Origin: Opitutales bacterium
GTDB lineage: Bacteria > Verrucomicrobiota > Verrucomicrobiia > Opitutales > JABSRG01
NCBI GenBank assembly: GCA_049599475.1
Contig: JBMYOQ010000039.1
Span: 1 to 37,435 of the forward strand
Direction: 5' to 3'
DNA length: 37,435 bases
Below, piece by piece: positions 1 through 26,414 of this stretch. Within the stretch, counting starts at the first letter, position 1; each line of letters starts with the position of its first letter. Below the pieces are notes generated by a model that had not been told where the DNA came from, did not search any database, and saw nothing but the letters and a program-made list of their open reading frames with translations. Both the position numbers and the translations under genes were made by a program.

Positions 1-52
1 TGGTGCACTTTGACCCGCAAACGAGTGGTGCACTTTAACCCGCAAAATGACA
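1..52. mobile_element. Terminal repeat region of an IS21-family insertion sequence (element lies upstream of the window)
   Basis: Two 20-bp tandem repeats, TGGTGCACTTTGACCCGCAA (1-20) and TGGTGCACTTTAACCCGCAA (26-45, 19/20 identical), followed by a terminal ...AATGACA (5'-TGTCA on the minus strand). Tandem subterminal repeats plus a TG/CA end are typical of IS21. Confidence 0.7.
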
Positions 53-491
53 AGAGATCCCATTGAAAAAGGCGGTCAGCCTTCTGTTTCTCCTAGCCGA
101 AAGACGCACAAAATCCTTTCCAAGAATCCTAGGATTTTTCGAAGGATTAATTGATCAATCAACTGACGATTCCGTAAGCACACATATCGAATCGCTCCTG
201 AACGATTATTTGAAGGTGCTTTTTGGCGATTGGGAACAAAATCGCTACGTTATCTCTTGGATATTCTTTTTCCTCAAAAAAAGAGGAATGAAAGTAAGAG
301 TTAAGAAGCAGGCTTCCAATCTCATAATAAAATCAATACGTAGTAATAAGCAGCTAATCTTCGGTGCTGCTTCTGATTTTAAACTGTTCAAGAGAATCAC
401 GAAGAACTCATCCCTCGATGCTCTTTCCGAAACGCTAGATGTGTTTGAACCTAAGTGGGAATCGCAACAAGGAGTGAATATATCAAGGTAA
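53..491 (+). pseudogene. 3' fragment of a gene interrupted by the IS; possibly the C-terminal region of an Abi/defence-type reverse transcriptase
   Basis: The frame is open right up to the IS junction, with only a TTG start at 63. AT-rich. The NRYVISWIFFFL...IFGAASDFKLF...LDVF segment resembles C-termini of ~500 aa defence RTs as I recall them (unverified). Confidence 0.45.
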
Positions 492-504
492 ACCAAACGA
501 CCCC
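488..504 (+). repeat. Cassette-delimiting direct repeat, copy 1 (GTAAACCAAACGACCCC)
   Basis: Motif overlaps the TAA stop of the 63-491 ORF; recurs at 1970, 3024 and 3481. Confidence 0.85.
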
Positions 505-617
505 GAAAAGAATGATATGTCATTTTAAATCCCCTCGATTTAAAAACTTGGGGCTAAATATCTCCTTTTCGACGCGACAATAATAAGTGAAACAGACTAG
601 GTTATTCTGAGGAACAT

Positions 618-1313
618 ATGAGTAAATATAACTGGCATTTTAACGAGTTTGTCCAGGTGGGCCGCGATTATACTTCAATAGAAGAGGTCAAGGTTTACGA
701 TGAGACTCACTCCCAATTTCGAGATATAGCTTTGGAGGCAAATGATGCATTAGATCGACTTGGTGTTGCTCCGAATCAGGTTCTAGTTGATATCGGATCG
801 GGTACAGGAATCTTTTCTCGTGAGGCATCAAAAAGAGGTATGGTCGTTCATGCTTCTGATGTTTCTGAAACAATGATTTCATATGCTCAGGAACAAACAA
901 AAGGGTTTGAAATTATGTTTCATCATGCCGGTTTTCTTACTCTAGATTTGCCGGATGCTAGTGTGGACTTTATCACCACGACATTTGCTTTTCATCATCT
1001 CCCAGATTATTGGAAAGGGATTGCTTTGAAGAGGATATGGCGGATGCTCAAAACAGGGGGGCAGCTCTATTTGAGAGACGTAATTATTCAAGAAGAGAAC
1101 TCTTTCGAAAACATCGAAGCGTTGATATCTCATCAAGAATCTTTAGGGGGCGATTTTCTTCGTGATGATGCTATCGAGCACTTCCGCGATGAAAACTCTA
1201 CGTATGATTGGGTGATGGATGGGTTGATAGATCGCGCGAGCTTTCAGGTGGTTTCGAAAGAGTTCGCGGGAGGTCTCTTGGGGACTTACTATTGCAGAAA
1301 GAGAGAAGAATAG
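618..1313 (+). CDS. Class I SAM-dependent methyltransferase
   Basis: VDIGSGTG motif I, SDVSETM motif II, AFHHL, LKTGG. GAGG RBS upstream. Confidence 0.9.
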   Translation: MSKYNWHFNEFVQVGRDYTSIEEVKVYDETHSQFRDIALEANDALDRLGVAPNQVLVDIGSGTGIFSREASKRGMVVHASDVSETMISYAQEQTKGFEIMFHHAGFLTLDLPDASVDFITTTFAFHHLPDYWKGIALKRIWRMLKTGGQLYLRDVIIQEENSFENIEALISHQESLGGDFLRDDAIEHFRDENSTYDWVMDGLIDRASFQVVSKEFAGGLLGTYYCRKREE

Positions 1314-1317
1314 TCAT

Positions 1318-1803
1318 ATGATGATTACAAGAGAAGTAGAGGCGGCGATCAACGAGAGTGTTTTGTGTTGGCTGGGCTCTGTCTCAAGCGATGGGGTTCC
1401 AAATGTTTCTCCCAAAGAGGCGTTCATTCATGATGGCGCTGGGAAGCTATTGATTGCAAATATTGCATCACCAGTAAGCCAAAAGAATTTAGGAGCATGC
1501 GATCGTGTTTGCGTTAGCTTTATCGAGATTTTCACACAAAAGGGTTATAAAATAGAAGGCCGTGCGAGAGTTCTGAATGATGAGGATGAGGGATATGGTT
1601 ACCGAAAGAGAAAATTGCTTTCAGTAATTGGTGATTCCTTTGATATTCTTTCTATTTTCGAAATTTCTCCACTTTCAATAAATAGAATTATCGCGCCCAG
1701 TTACAGAGTTTTTCCTGATTCAAGCGAAGATGATCGAATAAAAGAGTCTATTACGAGCTATAGGGTCGCTGAGTATCAAGATAGGCAGAACAAAACGAAG
1801 TAA
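1318..1803 (+). CDS. Pyridoxamine 5'-phosphate oxidase family (split-barrel FMN-binding) protein
   Basis: CWLGSVSSDGVPNVSPKE and IANIASP...KGYKIEGRA motifs. Confidence 0.85.
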   Translation: MMITREVEAAINESVLCWLGSVSSDGVPNVSPKEAFIHDGAGKLLIANIASPVSQKNLGACDRVCVSFIEIFTQKGYKIEGRARVLNDEDEGYGYRKRKLLSVIGDSFDILSIFEISPLSINRIIAPSYRVFPDSSEDDRIKESITSYRVAEYQDRQNKTK

Positions 1804-1969
1804 GGATTACTCTTGATCTCTTGATAGAGGGCACGTGGTTTACGGATTGGGCAATTGGATGAGCCAATTCGGTTCCATGTCATTCTCTTCTTCCACCAGG
1901 GGCCCAATATCTTAGCGTTCCTGTTATTCAGTAAGGCAGAGCTCGTCGTTGCATGAAAGCAGTCCAGCA

Positions 1970-1985
1970 GTAAACCAATCGACCC
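1970..1985 (+). repeat. Cassette-delimiting direct repeat, copy 2 (GTAAACCAATCGACCC, 1 mismatch)
   Basis: 15/16 identity to copies at 488 and 3481. Confidence 0.75.
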
Positions 1986-2221
1986 TGGAAACCTTCGGCC
2001 AGAGGCCAGACCACCTTGCAAAAGATCCTGGCAAGCCTCCACTACCGCTTCGATCAGGTAAGCCGAAAAGCCCCATGCCGCCCCGAGCAAAGTACCAAAC
2101 CCCGTATGGCCCCGATATCTTCGACGCGTATGACGGTTGACTGAATTGGGATGAATGTCTCTGTTCCAGATGAAGTTTATACTTCCATCGGCGCACATCA
2201 CCTTTAGCGTTCGAAAAGAAA

Positions 2222-3016
2222 ATGACAAAGGAAACTTATACCCCTGGGCATACAAAGAATGCGACGGATTTCATGGGGAAGCGCACCCTGGAGTCACATG
2301 GCTTCTTTTTTCGGCCCTACTTGGAAGACAGCCTTGATGTGTTGGATCTCGGTTGCGGCCCAGGAACGATTTCGATTGGTCTCGCTCAATCGACTAGTGG
2401 ACGTGTCGTGGGAATCGATTTTGGCGAGTCTCAGATCGACAAGGCGAGAGAGAACGCTACAGCTGCGGAATGCTCGAATCTCGAGTTTCATCTTGGGTCC
2501 TGTTACGAATTACCTTTTGAGGATGAGTCTTTCGACCGGGTTTTTTCACATGCTCTGATGGAGCACTTGCGCGATCCCGTCGCAGCACTGAAAGAAGCTT
2601 GCAGGATTCTGAAGCCGAATGGAGTTATTGGTATATGTAGTCCTGATGCGGACGGATGGTTGTTATCACCCCCATCCAATGAGCTGCATTCTGCCGTGAA
2701 CGCCTATGCCGACTTGCAGGCATCTAATGGAGGTGACCTGCGGATTGGGAAGAAGTTTGGCGTCATTTTGAAGGAGGCCGGATTCGCAGATATTCATCTA
2801 AGCGCACGGTATGAATGCTATTCATCCCTTCAGTTCATCGGTGAGTATCTAGCGTTGCAGCTTGAACAGAAGGGCATGCTCCAAGAAGCAAGGACTTTTC
2901 GGGATTGGAGTGGCAGCGACGACGGAATGTTTGCCCAAGCTTGGGTAGCCGCAATCGGAATAAAGAAGTCGAACAATGCGGAGAAGGCAACGCCTAGCGG
3001 CGCGTCTGTGCTTTGA
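2222..3016 (+). CDS. Class I SAM-dependent methyltransferase (UbiE/Methyltransf_31-like), integron-cassette-like
   Basis: LDLGCGPG, GIDFGESQ, LPFEDESFD, HALMEHL, LKPNG. GTTCGAA lies 6 bp before the ATG and the 3' end runs into an attC-like hairpin. Confidence 0.9.
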   Translation: MTKETYTPGHTKNATDFMGKRTLESHGFFFRPYLEDSLDVLDLGCGPGTISIGLAQSTSGRVVGIDFGESQIDKARENATAAECSNLEFHLGSCYELPFEDESFDRVFSHALMEHLRDPVAALKEACRILKPNGVIGICSPDADGWLLSPPSNELHSAVNAYADLQASNGGDLRIGKKFGVILKEAGFADIHLSARYECYSSLQFIGEYLALQLEQKGMLQEARTFRDWSGSDDGMFAQAWVAAIGIKKSNNAEKATPSGASVL

Positions 3017-3024
3017 CGTTCGAG
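2968..3024 (+). mobile_element. Integron attC-like recombination site (57 bp)
   Basis: GTCGAAC (R''-like) ... GTTCGAG (R'-like) enclose an imperfect palindrome, AATGCGGAGAAGGCAACGCCTAGCGGCGCGTCTGTGCTTTGAC. It overlaps the end of the upstream gene. Confidence 0.6.
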
Positions 3025-3038
3025 TAAACCAAACGACC
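3024..3038 (+). repeat. Cassette-delimiting direct repeat, copy 3 (GTAAACCAAACGACC)
   Basis: Exact 15-mer, starting at the last base of the attC R' box. Confidence 0.85.
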
Positions 3039-3080
3039 ATATTTCCACAGAATAGGCCTACGATTGCTTGCGTACTCTTC

Positions 3081-3149
3081 GATACAACTATTGTGGAGAT
3101 CCAAGACGGAGGAAATGTCTTTCATATGGACATTCTAAAAAATAAGTGA
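3081..3149 (+). pseudogene. Remnant of the C-terminus of a colicin/pyocin-type HNH DNase toxin
   Basis: Translates as DTTIVEIQDGGNVFHMDILKNK*, compare colicin E9 [20 protein letters not shown]. Its TGA overlaps the ATG of the downstream immunity-like gene (TGATG). Confidence 0.5.
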
Positions 3150-3406
3150 TGAACGAAAAATTAGTGAAAGAGCTCAGAGCTCTCTTTTTAGAGCTTTGGG
3201 ATATGCCGAATGACTCACGTTACGAAGAGATAGAACAGAGGCTAGCGGACATCTGTCCAGACCCTGACTGGCCTGATCATTTAGATGAATTTGCTACAGA
3301 TGACGAAACCTTAGATGTAGATCGCGTTTTAAGTAAGATAGCTGAATACAGACCCGATATTTTTATAGTTAAGGAATCTGGTGAGGTCATAGAAGGTGAT
3401 GAATAA
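3149..3406 (+). CDS. Colicin-DNase-type (Im9-like) bacteriocin immunity protein
   Basis: 85 aa acidic helical protein. ICPDPDWPDHL...LDVDRVLSKIAEYRP parallels the HPDGSDLIYY...SPEGIVKEIKEWR pattern of Im proteins, and it is coupled to an HNH remnant. Confidence 0.55.
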   Translation: MNEKLVKELRALFLELWDMPNDSRYEEIEQRLADICPDPDWPDHLDEFATDDETLDVDRVLSKIAEYRPDIFIVKESGEVIEGDE

Positions 3407-3480
3407 CAATGATAATACTAGCACACCACACAATCGCGCCAGCAAAGCTGATCACGATATCTGCTGTCGGGCATTTCAAA

Positions 3481-3496
3481 GTAAACCAAACGACCC
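3481..3496 (+). repeat. Cassette-delimiting direct repeat, copy 4 (GTAAACCAAACGACCC); array boundary
   Basis: Exact 16-mer match to copy 1; last copy before the higher-GC backbone genes. Confidence 0.85.
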
Positions 3497-3528
3497 TTTG
3501 ATACGCATAATTCAATAGATTCAAAATT

Positions 3529-3562
3529 AAAACGCCTGAGCCATTGAGAGGCGCAGGCGTTT
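3529..3562 (-). terminator. Rho-independent terminator of the 3578-5454 operon
   Basis: AAACGCCTGAGCC-attgaga-GGCGCAGGCGTTT hairpin with an A-run on its left, just past the minus-strand stop at 3578. Confidence 0.7.
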
Positions 3563-3577
3563 CTTGATCCGTCAGGC

Positions 3578-3967
3578 CTATAGCGGCGGAGGTGTGGCTG
3601 GCCCTGGGTAAGCTGCCTTTAGTTTCCCTTTCTTCCGCATCTTGTCGAAGTTGAACATGTTGAAGAAGTGCATCGCGCCGAGAACCAGCATGACGATGCC
3701 GAGCTTGGTGGTCGCGTATTCGATCCCGGCTATCAGGTTGACTGGTTTTTCGCCGACTCTGAGAAACATGAGGACAAAGCCTATGTTGATGAGGTAGAAG
3801 CCGACGACGAGCAGGTGGTTGACTGCATCCGCGCGAGCTTCGTCGCCATGGAAGGCATCAATGAGAAAGAGCCTTCCGTTTTTGTGTAGGGTCCGCGCGA
3901 CCCAGATGGTCATCGCAAGACTGATTAAGAAGTAGAGGGTGTAGATGATTATGATTGTGAGTTCCAT
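3578..3967 (-). CDS. Conserved integral membrane protein (3 predicted TM)
   Basis: Hydrophobic segments, LHKNGRLFL...VNHLLVVGFYLINIG...LGAMHFFN. Co-oriented with the TIGR01777 and GbsR genes. Confidence 0.75.
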   Translation of the reverse strand: MELTIIIIYTLYFLISLAMTIWVARTLHKNGRLFLIDAFHGDEARADAVNHLLVVGFYLINIGFVLMFLRVGEKPVNLIAGIEYATTKLGIVMLVLGAMHFFNMFNFDKMRKKGKLKAAYPGPATPPPL

Positions 3968-3984
3968 GGTTTATACCTTTCCGC

Positions 3985-4902
3985 TTAGGGTTTTATGAGA
4001 TTCCTCAAGGCTTGCTTGAGGGTTGGGAATTGGTGCTGGAATCCGGCTTCGACGAATCGGCGCGGGATGCAGTTTCTGCCGCGTAGGGCTAGTTCAGGTT
4101 CCGTGCGTAGTAGGCAGCAACCGAGACGAACGAGCCAGGTCGGCGCGCGTGGAGCCCAGGGGCGTCTCATGATGGCTCGGAGCTCGGACATGAACTCGGC
4201 ATTGCGCACCGGGTTCAGCCCGGTTGCATTATAAAGGCCTTCAATACTTTCGCGTTCGATGGCCCAGTGAAACATCTCATTTAGGTCATCGATATGAATC
4301 CAGCTATAGTATTGTTTCCCCGATCCGACGGCTCCACCCAGGAAGCATCGTGTGACCCATTTTAGGCGATTTAGCGCACCTCCATCTCTGCCGAGGACGA
4401 AGCTTATTCGAAACAATACTTTTCGGGCGTGTGGAATATCTTCGTCGTTGAAAGCCTGCTCCCAGGCCATTGCTACTTCAGGTGAAAAGCCGTGCCCAGG
4501 GCTGGCCGATTCATCGCGAAGCTCTTCGCCGGCATCACCGAGAATCGCGGTCGTGGCTGCTTGTATCCAAAATTTGGGTGGTTTTTTGGATTGTCGAAAT
4601 ACTTTTCCCAATACACGCACAGAGTCTAATCGTGATTCTAGAATCTCGCGGCGATTGTTTGCTGTGTAGCGGCAATCGACATTCTTCCCTGTAAGATTGA
4701 TTATTCCCCGTGCGCCGTCTAGCTCGGCAGCCCATGGGCCCAGGGTTTTACCGTCCCACAATACCTGCTGAGCGCCGCTTGGATCGGCCTTAGGCCTTCT
4801 GGTCAAAATGGCGACTTCGTATCCGCGCTCTAAAAGATTTTGAGTGAGCGCTTGGCCTATGAATCCACTACCGCCGGCGATAATTATCTTTTCATGTTTC
4901 AT
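3985..4902 (-). CDS. TIGR01777 family NAD-dependent epimerase-like oxidoreductase (YfcH-like, DUF1731 C-terminus)
   Basis: GGSGFIG Rossmann motif, ILESRLDS, GSGKQYYSWIHIDD, NAEFM, AGFQHQFPTL. Confidence 0.9.
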   Translation of the reverse strand: MKHEKIIIAGGSGFIGQALTQNLLERGYEVAILTRRPKADPSGAQQVLWDGKTLGPWAAELDGARGIINLTGKNVDCRYTANNRREILESRLDSVRVLGKVFRQSKKPPKFWIQAATTAILGDAGEELRDESASPGHGFSPEVAMAWEQAFNDEDIPHARKVLFRISFVLGRDGGALNRLKWVTRCFLGGAVGSGKQYYSWIHIDDLNEMFHWAIERESIEGLYNATGLNPVRNAEFMSELRAIMRRPWAPRAPTWLVRLGCCLLRTEPELALRGRNCIPRRFVEAGFQHQFPTLKQALRNLIKP

Positions 4903-4910
4903 CGTTATTG

Positions 4911-4934
4911 AACTTTCAGGAAAAATTGAAAATT
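4911..4934. promoter_or_regulatory. Putative GbsR/MarR-family operator (second copy)
   Basis: AACTTTCA-N8-TGAAAATT, near-identical to the palindrome at 5469-5492, just upstream of the TIGR01777 start. Confidence 0.65.
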
Positions 4935-4947
4935 TAGATCAAATAAG

Positions 4948-5454
4948 TTAAAGCAGCTTTAAGAGTTTAGGCATGAGTTTGTTGCGCTCAGACTTGGAGA
5001 CTTTCTCCATCATAGAATCTGCCACGGAGACAAATGCTTCGAGATTGGTTACCTGATCAAGAAAGGCCTTTTCTTCGTCGGTCTTAGCTTTTCCCTGCCC
5101 GCTCTTGCATTGTTGAAGAAGTTCGAGGGCTGGAGTGATTTCTCTACGACGCCGCTCGCTCGCAATCGTGCAGAACATTTTCCATACATCTTTTTCGGCC
5201 TCGAAATATTCCTTTCGATCCCCCTTGTAGGTGATTCTGCGAATAAGGCCCCAGCTCACTAAGTCTCGCAGATTGGTGTTTGCATTGCCTCTGCTGATCG
5301 CGAGCTCGTCCATGATCTGCTGAGTCGAAAGCGGATCTGTGCTGATCATCAGGCAAGCGTGGATCTGAGCCATAGTCCGGTTGATACCCCATAAACTCCC
5401 CAGGACTCCCCACTGGGTAATGAATTTATTGCGAGTCTCTTCGAAGTCCTTCAT
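4948..5454 (-). CDS. GbsR/MarR family transcriptional regulator
   Basis: FITQWGVLGSLWGINRTMAQIHA, ISRGNANTNLRDL wHTH, GDRKEYFEAEKDVW. Confidence 0.9.
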   Translation of the reverse strand: MKDFEETRNKFITQWGVLGSLWGINRTMAQIHACLMISTDPLSTQQIMDELAISRGNANTNLRDLVSWGLIRRITYKGDRKEYFEAEKDVWKMFCTIASERRRREITPALELLQQCKSGQGKAKTDEEKAFLDQVTNLEAFVSVADSMMEKVSKSERNKLMPKLLKLL

Positions 5455-5468
5455 GGCTTATATGATTG

Positions 5469-5492
5469 AACTTTCAGTAATTATTGAAAGTT
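5469..5492. promoter_or_regulatory. Putative GbsR/MarR autoregulatory operator
   Basis: Perfect 8-8-8 palindrome AACTTTCA-gtaattat-TGAAAGTT, 14 bp upstream of the regulator ATG. Confidence 0.7.
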
Positions 5493-5695
5493 GGCAACAA
5501 AAAACGAATGCTGCTCCGACAGAGGTGGCGGCCGAAGATCTGGGCAATCCCAAACGGGTGGATCTAGCTATTGTAGGGCAAGACGCGTAATGCGTAGGAG
5601 CCTCAATGCATTCGGCTCGCTAGCAGTAAGCAGTTTTTTGTGGATTTTCGTAGCGGATCTATGTTTCTATTTTGGACTGTCTTTCCTTTCTTGCT

Positions 5696-6148
5696 ATGAA
5701 TGATTTTGAATTGATTACAAAAGCCGAAGTGGTGCTAGCTCAGCGGGCTTGGGCATCTGCCGTTATTGCCCAGGATCTGGAAACCCTGCTTGCTTTGTAT
5801 GATTTTGGAACGCCCGATGAACCGCTTCTCTTTAAGCCGACATTGGCGGACCAGATTCGCGTGGATGAAGCGGGTGCGCGCTCTTACTTTGTCGGGGGGA
5901 ATCCTGACTACCCGCACGACCATGGTTTTTTGAAGTTGGCGTGGAAGCGAGTGGAGTTTCAAAGCGCGGTGGGCCCAATCCTCAAGGCCGGAGGCCTCGG
6001 ATACAAAGATATGGGGCAGTACACATTTGTGAATGCTGAGGGCGATGCCACGCGTGCAGACTATACCTTCACCTATCACAAAAAGGGCGGAAAGGTCCTG
6101 ATTTCCCTACATCACTCTTCGCTTACTTGGATTCCGCCTAAGAAGTAG
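5696..6148 (+). CDS. COG4337 / iota-class carbonic anhydrase-like protein (NTF2-like fold)
   Basis: LFKPTLA, SYFVGGNPDYPHDHGF, MGQYTF, YTFTY and C-terminal LHHSSL motifs. ATG at 5696 preferred over TTG at 5672. Confidence 0.8.
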   Translation: MNDFELITKAEVVLAQRAWASAVIAQDLETLLALYDFGTPDEPLLFKPTLADQIRVDEAGARSYFVGGNPDYPHDHGFLKLAWKRVEFQSAVGPILKAGGLGYKDMGQYTFVNAEGDATRADYTFTYHKKGGKVLISLHHSSLTWIPPKK

Positions 6149-6228
6149 ATTTGAATGAACATGGGCGACTGAATAAGGCGCTCCATGGACGTCATCAATC
6201 TTAGTTCCTGGAATCCATTTTGTGATGA

Positions 6229-6993
6229 ATGTCACAATTTGAGCGTTTACCTAATGGCTTCAGCGTGGATGGATATCAGGTGGAGCTCATTGAGAAAATC
6301 TCTAGAAGCAAAGCAGTATTCTTTGATTTGTTTCACACATTGGTCTACCTGCATACGGAAGGCCCGAATTCGGTAAATACCTACACGCATCTGGGTTTTC
6401 CGCATGATGTTTGGTTCGATCTTATTTTCGAGTCTTCAGAAGAGCGATTGAAAGGGAAAACTCGTGACAAATACGCCATTATCCGTGACCTCGCACATGA
6501 GTATGATCCGTCGATCGATGAGGCTCTGATTCGCTTTGACGTGGAGGAGCGGGTGAAACGCTTTCAAGCGGGCTTTGATAATCTTACTGAGGAGCGATTT
6601 GCGGTCATACAGTCTCTAAAGCATGCAGGCTTGTCTATTGGTCTCATCGGCAATGCCGACGCTGTAGAAATCACGGGTTGGTATGATTCGAAGATCTCTC
6701 GATTGTTTGATTCGGTGATCTTTTCTTTTGATGTAGGAGCGGTTAAGCCGGAACCGGCAATTTATGAAATTGCCCTGGAGTCTTTAGGAGTATCGGCCAC
6801 GGAGTCGGTGTTCGTGGGGGATGGTGCCTCTCATAAATTGAAGGGTACCCGTGAACTCGGATTTACCACTGTAATGACAACGGAAATACTCGCCACCCTA
6901 TGGCCTGAGAAAATTCCTGCACGCACGCCCTTTGCAGATTATGTGGTTTCGCGGCTGAGTGAGCTCGTTAGTATCCCAGACGAAAGGCTGTGA
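6229..6993 (+). CDS. HAD family hydrolase
   Basis: FFDLFHTL motif I variant, KPEPAIY, VFVGDG. Confidence 0.85.
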   Translation: MSQFERLPNGFSVDGYQVELIEKISRSKAVFFDLFHTLVYLHTEGPNSVNTYTHLGFPHDVWFDLIFESSEERLKGKTRDKYAIIRDLAHEYDPSIDEALIRFDVEERVKRFQAGFDNLTEERFAVIQSLKHAGLSIGLIGNADAVEITGWYDSKISRLFDSVIFSFDVGAVKPEPAIYEIALESLGVSATESVFVGDGASHKLKGTRELGFTTVMTTEILATLWPEKIPARTPFADYVVSRLSELVSIPDERL

Positions 6994-7036
6994 GATCAAT
7001 CTCGACTGCCTCAATCAAATCGATTTGCATTGGACA

Positions 7037-8380
7037 ATGAGTTTCATGAATTGGAACCCCGATGACACCGATAGATCCATCGATGAGATCCCGGTGAGCG
7101 TGTTAAGTGGCTTCTTGGGTGCAGGGAAGACCACACTGCTTAATCATATATTAGTTGCATCGTCTTCAAGGCGGTATGCGGTCTTGGTGAATGATCTGGG
7201 CGAGGTAAATATTGATGCAGCTCTGATTAAGAGTGAGATTAAGGAGATGGAAGGAGCGATTGGGGGGATGCTCGAGCTGCAAGGTGGATGTATCTGTTGC
7301 ACCATACAGACGGACCTATTGGACGCGTTGCTTGAGCTTTCTCAGAAATTTAAACCGGAACATATTCTGATAGAGGCGACCGGAGTCGCGGAGCCTCGAT
7401 CCATTGTTGAGACCATTTATTCGGTAAATCCATTTGGCAAAAGTGGCACTGACTTTCTTAAGATTGCGAATCTGTTGACAGTCGTCGATGGCGGCAATTT
7501 AGAGCAGTATTTTGAGTCTGATGAAAATACGGGAGTCTCTAAACGGAAGCACTTGCTCAACAACGATCCGCGTCGTCCTCTCCAGGAGCTCCTGATGGAA
7601 CAGGTCGAGTGTGCGGACATATTATTGATCAATAAATCGGATACGTTGAGCGAGGATAACCGGCGTCGATTCAATTCCTATTTAAAGAGCTTAAACGACC
7701 ATGCCGAGATCTGGGAAACCAGTTTTGGCGCGGTCGATGTAGAACGGCTCATGCAGCATGAACGATTCTGTGTGGACAGAACATTGATCGGGGCCAGGTG
7801 GCGGCAGGAAATGTTTGAAAACCTCGATGCGCAGAACGATTCATCAGAGTGTTCCGGACATTCCCATCAAGAGCATTCCTACCATGATCACGGCCACGAT
7901 CACGGCCGCCATCAGGCGCATGACCACGATCATTCGTGTGATCAGCATTCCTGTGGTCACGATCACTCTCATGATGATCACGCTCATCACGATCACAAGG
8001 ATTACGGTCTGGAAACATACGTTTTCAATGCCCGTAGACAGTTTGTTGAATCGAAATTGTTGAAAGTATTTAGGACCGGTCTCGTGGGGGTAATTAGAGC
8101 TAAGGGCTTTTATTGGACAGAGCGCGTCCCTGAGAGAGTTGGACTCTTGTCGCTAGCGGGTAAAATACTTCGGGCGGACTATATGACCGATTGGTTTTAC
8201 GGAATGGTCCGAAATGGAGAAATAAGCTACGAAGAGCTGCCAGAGCTAGTACGCAGTGCTTGGCTTCCTGATTACGGCGACAGAAGGCAGGAGATCGTTT
8301 TTATTGGCATTGATCTCGACCGCGAAGGAATCGAGCGTGCTTTGACGGAGTGCTTTGTGCCCGCGGAAATCGTCAGTTAA
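7037..8380 (+). CDS. COG0523 (CobW/ZigA/YciC-like) G3E GTPase metallochaperone with His-rich insert
   Basis: SGFLGAGKTT, VNDLGE, GCICC, EATG, NKSD, a long His/Asp tract and CobW_C (RAKGF, DRRQEIVFIG). Start probably 7037 or 7046. Confidence 0.92.
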   Translation: MSFMNWNPDDTDRSIDEIPVSVLSGFLGAGKTTLLNHILVASSSRRYAVLVNDLGEVNIDAALIKSEIKEMEGAIGGMLELQGGCICCTIQTDLLDALLELSQKFKPEHILIEATGVAEPRSIVETIYSVNPFGKSGTDFLKIANLLTVVDGGNLEQYFESDENTGVSKRKHLLNNDPRRPLQELLMEQVECADILLINKSDTLSEDNRRRFNSYLKSLNDHAEIWETSFGAVDVERLMQHERFCVDRTLIGARWRQEMFENLDAQNDSSECSGHSHQEHSYHDHGHDHGRHQAHDHDHSCDQHSCGHDHSHDDHAHHDHKDYGLETYVFNARRQFVESKLLKVFRTGLVGVIRAKGFYWTERVPERVGLLSLAGKILRADYMTDWFYGMVRNGEISYEELPELVRSAWLPDYGDRRQEIVFIGIDLDREGIERALTECFVPAEIVS

Positions 8381-8449
8381 ACGGTTTGTTTCTTAGACCT
8401 CTTCGATCTACACCGGTGCGACAACGTTTATGCTACTTGCTCAAGGTAT

Positions 8450-8531
8450 GGTAATGATAGCTCGCCGAGCTATCCGTCAGCTTTTGCGTGAGCGAGATCC
8501 GAAATGGACACTTCGGCGAGGCGTCCCTAGC
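8450..8531. repeat. REPIN-like doublet (two inverted GTAG-type REP hairpins)
   Basis: GGTAATGATAGCTCGCCGAGCTATCC ... GGACACTTCGGCGAGGCGTCCCTAGC between convergent genes. Confidence 0.55.
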
Positions 8532-8569
8532 ACAATTTATTATAGAGGGATTATTCCAACTTCAGAAAT

Positions 8570-9067
8570 CTAGAGCTGAGTCGGGTTTGGAGCATTTCCA
8601 TATATTGCTTTGGGGTCGAAGGCTTTAGATTTTTCGACAAATTGGAGGTTCACGGGTGCGTCCGCTTTTCCTATCGGGACTTCGCGATAGAAGCATGATC
8701 GGTAGCCAACGTGACAGGATGCCTCGTCCCCGCCAGCGGTTGGCTCCGTCAAATCGACTTCTATCACCACACAGTCTTGGTCGTCATCGATGAGCATTCG
8801 TTTCACATGCTGGTACATCCCGGAGCTCTCGCCTTTTTTCCAAAGCGCCTTCCGAGAACGCGACCAATAGTGGGCTAGCCCAGTTTCGATGGTAAGGGTG
8901 AGCGCCTCGGAATTCATAAATCCAAGCATCAACACTTCGCGGGTGGTGGCATGCAAGGTAACGCACGGGAGGACACCCTTGTCATCGAATTTCGGCGCTA
9001 GTTTTCGGCCTTCCTCGACTTGTTCGACACTCTCTCGTTTAGCAAAAAGCGTGGATGATTCGTTCAT
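8570..9067 (-). CDS. hisI: Phosphoribosyl-AMP cyclohydrolase (probable low-zinc paralog)
   Basis: VLMLGFMN, YWSRSRKALWKKGESSG, IDDDQD (canonical DCDxD), SCHVGYRSCFYR. Confidence 0.9.
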   Translation of the reverse strand: MNESSTLFAKRESVEQVEEGRKLAPKFDDKGVLPCVTLHATTREVLMLGFMNSEALTLTIETGLAHYWSRSRKALWKKGESSGMYQHVKRMLIDDDQDCVVIEVDLTEPTAGGDEASCHVGYRSCFYREVPIGKADAPVNLQFVEKSKAFDPKAIYGNAPNPTQL

Positions 9068-25413: not shown

Positions 25414-26414
25414 TACTTCGCGAAATTCGCTGCAATCCGTGCCTGTAGATAATCGTGGGCCGTGATCGGGTCGTATTTACCTTCAGGGCCTTGAATCATG
25501 GCGTCTTTATTGCCTTGGCAGAAAAAGGCTATGGAGTATCGAGCCCCTTGATACTCCTCAGGCTTCGGCATGCGCACGCGGTGTAGGGTGGAGAGCAGTT
25601 TATCATCCGCCCAACGCATCAGCATGTCGCCGATGTTGCATGTGACCACGCCTGGGAGCGGTGGCACATCGGTCCACTGTAATTCCTCGCCTTCAGACTC
25701 GATGCCTGGGCAAAGCTGCAAGCCGCCTTGTCCTGGGCGTTGATGGAGGAGGGTGAGGCAGTCAAAATCGGTGTGAGCCCCAGCGCGCCAGAGTTCGAAG
25801 TCCTCGGGCTTGGCGCCTTCCATTTCAAGATAGTGAATGAGGCGGAGGGTCGATTGGTATTCGGGCGACATGGGGTCGTGGCAATCCGTGAAAAAGTCGC
25901 TCGCGAATCCGAGCTTCATGGCAAAGCAATCGAGCACCTTCATGCCCAGCGCCCAGTTTGCGCGCTCAAAGGCGAGCATGGTGGCTTTGAATCCCGGGAC
26001 TTCGGCGCCGGTTGGCCAAAGTTTCGACATTCGTGGTAAAGTAATTTGGTAAGATTCCTTACGGTCGGCGGTTCCGGTCGAAGGCCGCACTTGTGCGCGA
26101 TATTCCCAGCCAGCATTGGTGCCCTGGAGCATTGGATATTTTTCCTTCGTTTCTTCTGGTTGAGAAAAGAAACCTGCTGAAAGGGAGAATGCCTCATCGA
26201 CCAATGAAGGGTCGATGCCGTGATTTACCAGCTGGAAGAAACCGATTTTTGTAGCTGCATCCCAGAGCGCATCAGCAATTTCGGCTTTGCGCTCAAAATA
26301 GTGGCTCATGTCAATCTGCGGAATATCGCGTTCTTTAATGCCACCGACACCGCCGATTCCGGCTTCTTTTTTGAGTTCTTGAAGAGGAGCAGCGTTCGAA
26401 TTTGAGTCAGTCAT
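25413..26414 (-). CDS. 2-oxoglutarate/Fe(II)-dependent dioxygenase (isopenicillin N synthase-like)
   Basis: GFFQLVNHG (DIOX_N), HTD...H facial triad (GAHTDF, STLHRV), RYS. Confidence 0.92.
   Translation of the reverse strand: MTDSNSNAAPLQELKKEAGIGGVGGIKERDIPQIDMSHYFERKAEIADALWDAATKIGFFQLVNHGIDPSLVDEAFSLSAGFFSQPEETKEKYPMLQGTNAGWEYRAQVRPSTGTADRKESYQITLPRMSKLWPTGAEVPGFKATMLAFERANWALGMKVLDCFAMKLGFASDFFTDCHDPMSPEYQSTLRLIHYLEMEGAKPEDFELWRAGAHTDFDCLTLLHQRPGQGGLQLCPGIESEGEELQWTDVPPLPGVVTCNIGDMLMRWADDKLLSTLHRVRMPKPEEYQGARYSIAFFCQGNKDAMIQGPEGKYDPITAHDYLQARIAANFAK

Follow-up and report, generated by a model that had tools for sequence, protein, structure and literature searches.

Background

The usual understanding of integron arrays is that growth takes place at attI and that reshuffling goes through attC sites alone. 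The known exceptions are delta-attI sites, truncated attC sites and attG sites, each of them described in mobile integrons from the clinic or in laboratory assays. In a different kind of array, integrative elements accumulate in tandem at a single att site, as in arrays of cis-mobilizable elements (CIME) and integrative and conjugative elements (ICE) and in the integrative mobile elements exploiting Xer (IMEX) at dif. Here we describe a 16-base direct repeat, the 16-mer, that stands four times within an array of integron cassettes at the start of a contig from an Opitutales bacterium of the Verrucomicrobiota (assembly GCA_049599475.1, contig JBMYOQ010000039.1, positions 1 to 37,435). The contig (C39) opens with this stretch of 37.4 kb, the window, and the assembly (G000) comprises 4.68 Mb in 146 contigs and is 96.6% complete. 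An earlier note on the same DNA had proposed an undescribed gene-capture system; we find instead that the locus is mostly an ordinary integron, the remainder being a private 16-base repeat inside it.

Some of the described sites closest to the repeat belong to mobile integrons. In their delta-attI cassettes, 14-18 nt of attI replace attC while the G/TT crossover is retained (a slash marks the crossover), with the consensus AAACAAAGTTRRRY, and cassettes with attC truncated to the R'' box are likewise described (PMC12901181). Double-stranded attG sites, which lie outside attI and attC, also accept cassettes and need G/WT at the cut (bioRxiv 10.1101/2022.09.11.507474).

A private repeat at one locus

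A pattern search of the window finds the 16-mer, GTAAACCAAACGACC(C), four times on the + strand (Table 1) at spacings of 1482, 1054 and 457, as the earlier note had reported, and the only further match, at 25847 on the - strand, carries 3 mismatches. Chance expectation for matches in the window is 0.24, and none of 100 shuffles reaches the observed 5. The likeness is confined almost entirely to the core. When the four copies are aligned with 60 nt on either side, no conserved sequence appears beyond it; the flanks (150-170 nt) are unrelated, with a lowest p of 0.14 over 12 pairwise local alignments, and a word search finds no second box common to three or four of the regions downstream. There is slight extension in two pairs: between the outermost copies (1 and 4) 22 of 24 bases agree, among them 6 of the 8 that precede the core, and between copies 1 and 2 the agreement is 19 of 22. 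The 16-mer is not palindromic and has no dyad symmetry, and base composition varies from segment to segment between its copies. Excising the cassette at 2210-3018, the only one with clean bounds, would leave copies 2 and 3 245 nt apart. Hairpins after copies 1-4 have z-scores of -1.8, +0.3, -1.0 and -3.3, the last being a terminator; these values are uninformative, because true attC sites score no better.

Contigs of two runs show the same arrangement. One 21.7-kb contig of run X1 spans 26-9000 with zero differences, and run X2, from an independent study and the only other run with this DNA, contains the same strain in the same arrangement at 2-4x depth, with one contig crossing copy 2 and both of its flanks. 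A 263-nt contig of run X2 starts precisely at 504, the first base past copy 1, which may be chance at 2-4x depth (about 1 in 20 by a rough count).

On the scale of the genome, the repeat is clustered and not dispersed. A whole-genome scan with the 15-mer at up to 2 mismatches gives 19 matches, against 11 for the reversed control, and at up to 1 mismatch there are only 5: the four array copies and one at C7:87405, which sits in a 601-aa open frame and encodes VNQTT. Matches at up to 1 mismatch occur in 79 of the 401 genomes of the order that were checked, in numbers that resemble the reversed control; this genome alone among the 401 has more than two, and those of the others are never close together. 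The seven array loci of the sister species (G001) and of a second relative in the same family (G003) hold no 16-mer, nor any short repeat above two copies. Plasmid sequences give nothing matching window 53-3600, and a scan of viral sequences gives 12 loci with single matches only. Among the metagenome matches listed, the exact 16-mer recurs singly on many unrelated contigs (loci L072-L190) whose flanks show codon periodicity, and most of these copies are therefore the coding word VNQTT of a conserved gene, as at C7:87405, unrelated to the array. At least 119 such loci, among the matches listed, have a single 16-mer each, with no second copy in 332 kb of flanks and no match to the attC profile described below. 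The 16-mer is thus real, non-random, clustered at one place and private to this locus in the genome.

The integron setting

Positions 1-3500 of the window are the promoter-distal tail of a classical, lineage-specific chromosomal integron array. The integron integrase is encoded on a different contig (C120:5184-6110) and matches TIGR02249 at 350.3 bits, above the curated cut-off of 265; the region on the present contig is therefore a cluster of attC sites lacking an integrase (CALIN). Beside the integrase lie an attI-like region, whose end reads ...GGACTG/TTAGGT, and three cassettes separated by 127-128-nt sites that begin xxxxAACAAGTC and finish CTTTAGCGTTxxxx. A profile of these sites has ten members in the assembly, two of them within the window. 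Eight sites align with a 14-pair stem, in which 11 pairs show compensatory changes, and 12 nt separate the stem from either end, the room that the R box and unpaired spacer should take up in an attC. Matches to this attC family are found in 8 of 151 genomes of the order, and the family is present in both G001 (10 matches) and G003 (12 matches).

A covariance model built from the eight sites and 14 pairs (R1), run without filters over window 1-6000 with E up to 10, finds three attC sites in the window, from which we take the crossovers given in Table 1. The stems at 1785-1923 and 2094-2215 fold poorly; in the hairpin of the 57-nt site, R'' GTCGAAC pairs with R' GTTCGAG (3018-3024), the box that copy 3 had been seen to abut. 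A match of nhmmer at 2075-2219 is not independent, the profile having come from an alignment (A2) that contained that stretch. The cassette at 2210-3018 is a textbook integron cassette, with a methyltransferase start codon 12 nt past the crossover. The sister species has a homologue of the PNPOx-like protein that stands alone. The genes of this array tail were captured by the classical route, with IntI acting on folded attC sites. The reading of the locus as a cassette array is thus borne out, and a new capture system is unneeded, because the three attC sites divide the region into ordinary cassettes and the genome encodes an integrase. Nor do we retain a toxin remnant with its immunity gene: the 85-aa open reading frame (ORF) at 3149-3406 finds only itself among 5 candidates in a large protein collection and belongs to no Pfam family, so that this reading is unsupported.

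The locus resembles sedentary chromosomal integrons and their CALINs in most respects. Its cassettes lie on the same strand and are bounded by a homogeneous 127-nt attC family with a covarying stem; the genome has both an integrase and an attI region; the attC family is also that of the sister species and of one genus within the same family; and the cargo is typical, comprising methyltransferases, orphan ORFs and a defence reverse transcriptase. It is unlike them in the 16-mers, which are not attC sites and have no equivalent either in the genome's other arrays or in those of the relatives. Every cassette boundary of an integron should be an attC, and at the four 16-mers this is not what we find.

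The attI-like region exists in three copies that are 86-98% identical and carry TGTCGCATAAAMGGA repeats (C120:6526-6763, C77:13534-13906 and C5:~137,770-138,159). Each copy precedes cassettes; only the copy on C120 has the integrase beside it, and the neighbour of the one on C77 is a gene for a purine nucleoside permease.

Table 1. Features of the array tail and of the adjoining chromosome (positions in the window).
Feature	Positions	Strand	Details
Insertion-sequence end with two 21-nt subterminal repeats	1..52		contig begins here; array cut
UG14-type defence reverse transcriptase, C-terminal fragment	54..491	+	RT_UG14 positions 365-492 of 493, E 9.6e-26
16-mer copy 1	488..503	+	exact
S-adenosylmethionine (SAM) methyltransferase	618..1313	+	Methyltransf_25 1.8e-18
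PNPOx-like protein	1318..1803	+	PNPOx_N 6.9e-14; 4 nt after methyltransferase
attC, degenerate stem	1785..1923	+	R1 81 bits, training member; nhmmer E 0.096 before joining profile; crossover G/TT at 1917/1918
16-mer copy 2	1970..1985	+	1 mismatch (A to T, position 10); within ORF-less 292-nt cassette 1918-2209
attC, aberrant 5' end	2094..2215	+	R1 36.4 bits, E 6.4e-8, outside training set; crossover 2209/2210
Methyltransferase cassette	2210..3018	+	gene 2222-3016, Methyltransf_31 3e-30, own 57-nt attC
attC, 57 nt	2968..3024	+	R1 24.5 bits, E 4.2e-5, outside training set; crossover 3018/3019
16-mer copy 3	3024..3039	+	1 mismatch (last base A); first G is final base of attC R' box
85-aa acidic ORF	3149..3406	+	no relatives
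16-mer copy 4	3481..3496	+	exact; final element before conserved chromosome
Terminator-like hairpin of converging operon	3531..3565	-	z -3.33; 0/200 shuffles fold as well; T-run after it on - strand
Three-gene chromosomal operon	3578-5454	-	69% identical in sister species

Borders of the array

The two outermost copies of the 16-mer stand next to the end of the reverse transcriptase gene and next to the conserved chromosome. On the right, likeness to the sister species begins at about 3591-3615, just beyond copy 4, in agreement with the earlier placement of this copy at the border with the chromosomal backbone. In the sister species the operon has different neighbours and no 16-mer.

On the left, the first gene had been read as a truncated defence-like gene. 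Its defence character is upheld by the match to the C-terminal 130 aa of RT_UG14; the truncation is real only at the left, where an insertion sequence interrupts the reverse transcriptase and leaves its last 130 aa, and the 3' end is intact. Full-length homologues of this UG14 reverse transcriptase have 510-540 aa and carry RVT_1. They stop 2-3 residues past a DVF motif, and the frame in the window continues for 11 codons to a TAA (489-491) that copy 1 supplies, as had been noticed; copy 1 thus begins about 30 nt beyond the natural end of the protein. No homologue of the C-terminal domain was found in 400 other genomes of the phylum, and the missing N-terminal part is not among the 5 RVT_1 matches in the genome. 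An integron cassette on C77 (L069, 15749-17548) encodes a 599-aa NACHT/STAND NTPase, and together with the UG14 reverse transcriptase it suggests that these arrays carry defence genes.

The insertion-sequence end that opens the contig is found at 26 contig ends, and 31 more have the element's other end type; target duplications measure 5-6 bp. The element breaks the assembly at about 57 ends, and its own interior is missing from the assembly. The partner flank of the copy at 1-52 was not found.

Identities rejected for the repeat

None of the known kinds of site that we considered fits the 16-mer. Like the earlier note, we hold that it is neither an attC nor a CRISPR (clustered regularly interspaced short palindromic repeats) unit. 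R1 matches none of the copies even with E up to 10 and filters off, and there is no second box; on either strand, attC is rejected by the covariance model and by a crude scan for R''/R' pairs, the latter poorly discriminating. A CRISPR or casposon origin is rejected on the 16-nt length of the repeat, against the 21 nt or more of CRISPR-type repeats, zero Cas1 matches in the genome and no terminal inverted repeats seen. The delta-attI sites are alike in being 14-18-nt sequences, repeated in an array, at the attC position just past a gene, a likeness they share with truncated attC; the 16-mer, however, has no GTT on the + strand, either within it or at its 3' edge, and differs from the attI end of this genome. 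The attG sites are alike in admitting cassettes outside attI and attC, but the 16-mer is without G/WT on the cassette strand, and its two GTT, which lie on the opposite strand, would invert the cassettes; inversion is not seen.

The earlier suggestion of a link to Y1 transposases, of the kind associated with repetitive extragenic palindromes (REP; the transposases are REP-associated tyrosine transposases, RAYT), is not sustained: the motif is not palindromic and has 5 copies at up to 1 mismatch in 4.68 Mb, not hundreds, and the 12 Y1_Tnp-like matches in the genome lie on other contigs. The repeat is also not the end of a known insertion sequence or miniature inverted-repeat transposable element (MITE), since the insertion-sequence ends that cut the contigs differ in sequence and no further copies of the motif occur. 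By eye it has no 11-6-11 dyad, which speaks against a Xer/dif site, although no formal test was made. At none of the copies is there an Rfam family or a promoter-like match. Orphan modules of a polymorphic toxin, joined at VNQTT codons, are rejected as well: downstream of copies 1-3 the frame continues for 26, 52 and 37 codons, but the peptides are unrelated, and at copy 4 it stops after one codon.

Origin of the repeat

We tentatively put first, as a possible origin, repeated insertion at one 16-bp site on the border between array and chromosome. That insertion took place at the core, by the action of some enzyme, we infer. The 16-mer would then be a separate layer on the integron: a short sequence, copied recently and exactly, with unrelated DNA joined on both sides. 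The original site would have had the last cassette, that of the reverse transcriptase, on one side and the chromosomal operon's terminator on the other, and every insertion event would have added one copy of the core, whether by conservative recombination between identical cores or by insertion with a 16-bp target duplication. Cassettes would have come to stand between the copies either because the inserted pieces carried attC sites or because cassettes entered those attC sites later. None of the three outcomes by which the earlier note would have had its reading refuted was observed, in a comparison that covered this genome, two runs with one and the same arrangement, and a sister species at 69% identity.

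We rank repeated insertion first because recombination cores and target duplications leave identical short direct repeats joined to unrelated DNA, and because one of the outermost copies closely follows the last intact gene end and the other closely precedes the conserved chromosome. It is further favoured by the 16/16 or 15/16 identity of four same-strand copies that are unique to the locus and have unrelated flanks, by the position of copy 1 some 30 nt after the end of the reverse transcriptase, by the extended likeness of copies 1 and 4, by the lack of any attC-model match and by the differing composition of the segments. Tandem integration at an att core leaves the same core, in direct order, at every junction between stretches of unrelated DNA, a pattern that is seen here, and in the accretion of CIME, ICE and IMEX elements the junctions likewise carry identical short direct cores, at a genome-unique site, around pieces without a recombinase. 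Unlike those elements, the pieces here are of 0.46-1.5 kb and built of integron cassettes, and, by eye, no integrase or Xer-type 11-6-11 layout is seen in or around the core.

Several observations weigh against repeated insertion. No recombinase gene adjoins the locus, the left side of which is lost to the insertion sequence, and a search of the genome for a Cas1-type integrase gave nothing. The attC sites in the pieces that separate the copies are of the genome's own family, so that these pieces are not foreign elements; they show no terminal inverted repeats and no common arm sequences, and the core is without dyad symmetry. The contigs of runs X1 and X2 show no joint at a 16-mer, although contigs lose rare forms. 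There is also no second example in the 400 other genomes of the order, the at least 119 metagenome loci listed, the 12 viral loci or the seven array loci of the relatives.

The alternative next in rank, unlikely although it suits the setting, is that the 16-mers are the 5' stubs (R'' box, spacer and first stem bases) of four near-identical attC sites, whose hairpins were lost by replication slippage or decay in a degenerating tail. The tail does contain visibly decayed attC sites, and the 16-mer has the layout xxxxAAC, five nucleotides and the start of a stem; AACCAAACGA occurs both in it and in one true attC of the order (from G120), and it matches the attC at 1785 in 9 of 10 bases and resembles the 5' end of the site at 2094, and in copy 1 a 7-bp stem directly follows the motif. 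Precedents exist in the R''-only cassettes of mobile integrons (PMC12901181), and loss of attC through slippage is stated in bioRxiv 10.1101/2022.09.11.507474. The sequence tests speak against this reading. In a weight matrix from the 5' ends of 25 true attC sites, 23-52% of the 115,528 genomic AAC sites score at least as high as the motif, a test that also separates it from R''-truncated attC, and at least 20 other places in the window surpass its gapped likeness to the 5' end of the 2094 site. The covariance model finds none of the four copies, there is no R' or other second box (with zero GTT between copy 3 and the next gene), and the hairpin z-scores are not significant. Stubs would moreover need four independent deletions ending at one base.

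Quite unlikely, too, is a second, attC-independent route of growth within the integron tail, in which pieces of 0.5-1.5 kb would have been stacked at a double-stranded 16-bp core by IntI acting at a non-GTT site or by another recombinase. If such a route were true, arrays could grow from their far end as well as at attI.

It is improbable that the 16-mer is a cis-acting binding site, such as an operator, a promoter element or an RNA motif, upstream of the cassette genes. The next + strand gene does follow copies 1, 2 and 3 at distances of 115, 237 and 107 nt, respectively, and is oriented as they are, but copy 4 has no gene downstream. The 4.7-Mb genome has no other copy and the arrays of relatives lack the motif; no promoter-like match or Rfam family falls on the copies, and 16/16 identity is rare where binding alone preserves sites. 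Coincidence is hardly credible, and the same goes for a fusion of unrelated pieces by the assembler at a common word, even for a metagenome assembly broken at about 57 insertion-sequence ends, given that no shuffle equals the count, that assembly word sizes exceed 16 bases and that the contigs of X1 (26-9000, without difference) and X2 (copy 2 with both flanks) run through. Mechanisms beyond those listed here retain about a third of the probability.

A short non-attC repeat bounding cassettes in an environmental chromosomal integron of the Verrucomicrobiota would add a natural case to the exceptions. An active 16-mer would offer genes a new point of entry, and even as debris alone the repeat shows how the far end of an array decays. 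The weight of the case is limited, because it is a single, private example.

Other observations

A group II intron lies on the - strand of another contig (C3:~129,785-131,900); it encodes a 447-aa reverse transcriptase, and its domain V/VI scores 38.6 bits, against an Rfam gathering threshold of 40. The flanks of this intron are unrelated, and a link to the reverse transcriptase of the array is rejected.

To the right of the array, the inverted-repeat boxes AACTTTCA...TGAAAGTT occur at 4911-4934 and again at 5469-5492, flanking a MarR/PadR-like gene (4948-5454), and they look like operators of that gene. Farther along, at 6959-8380, the window encodes a protein of 473 aa that contains an extended run rich in His and Asp (HDHGHDHGRH...) and by eye is metal-chaperone GTPase-like.

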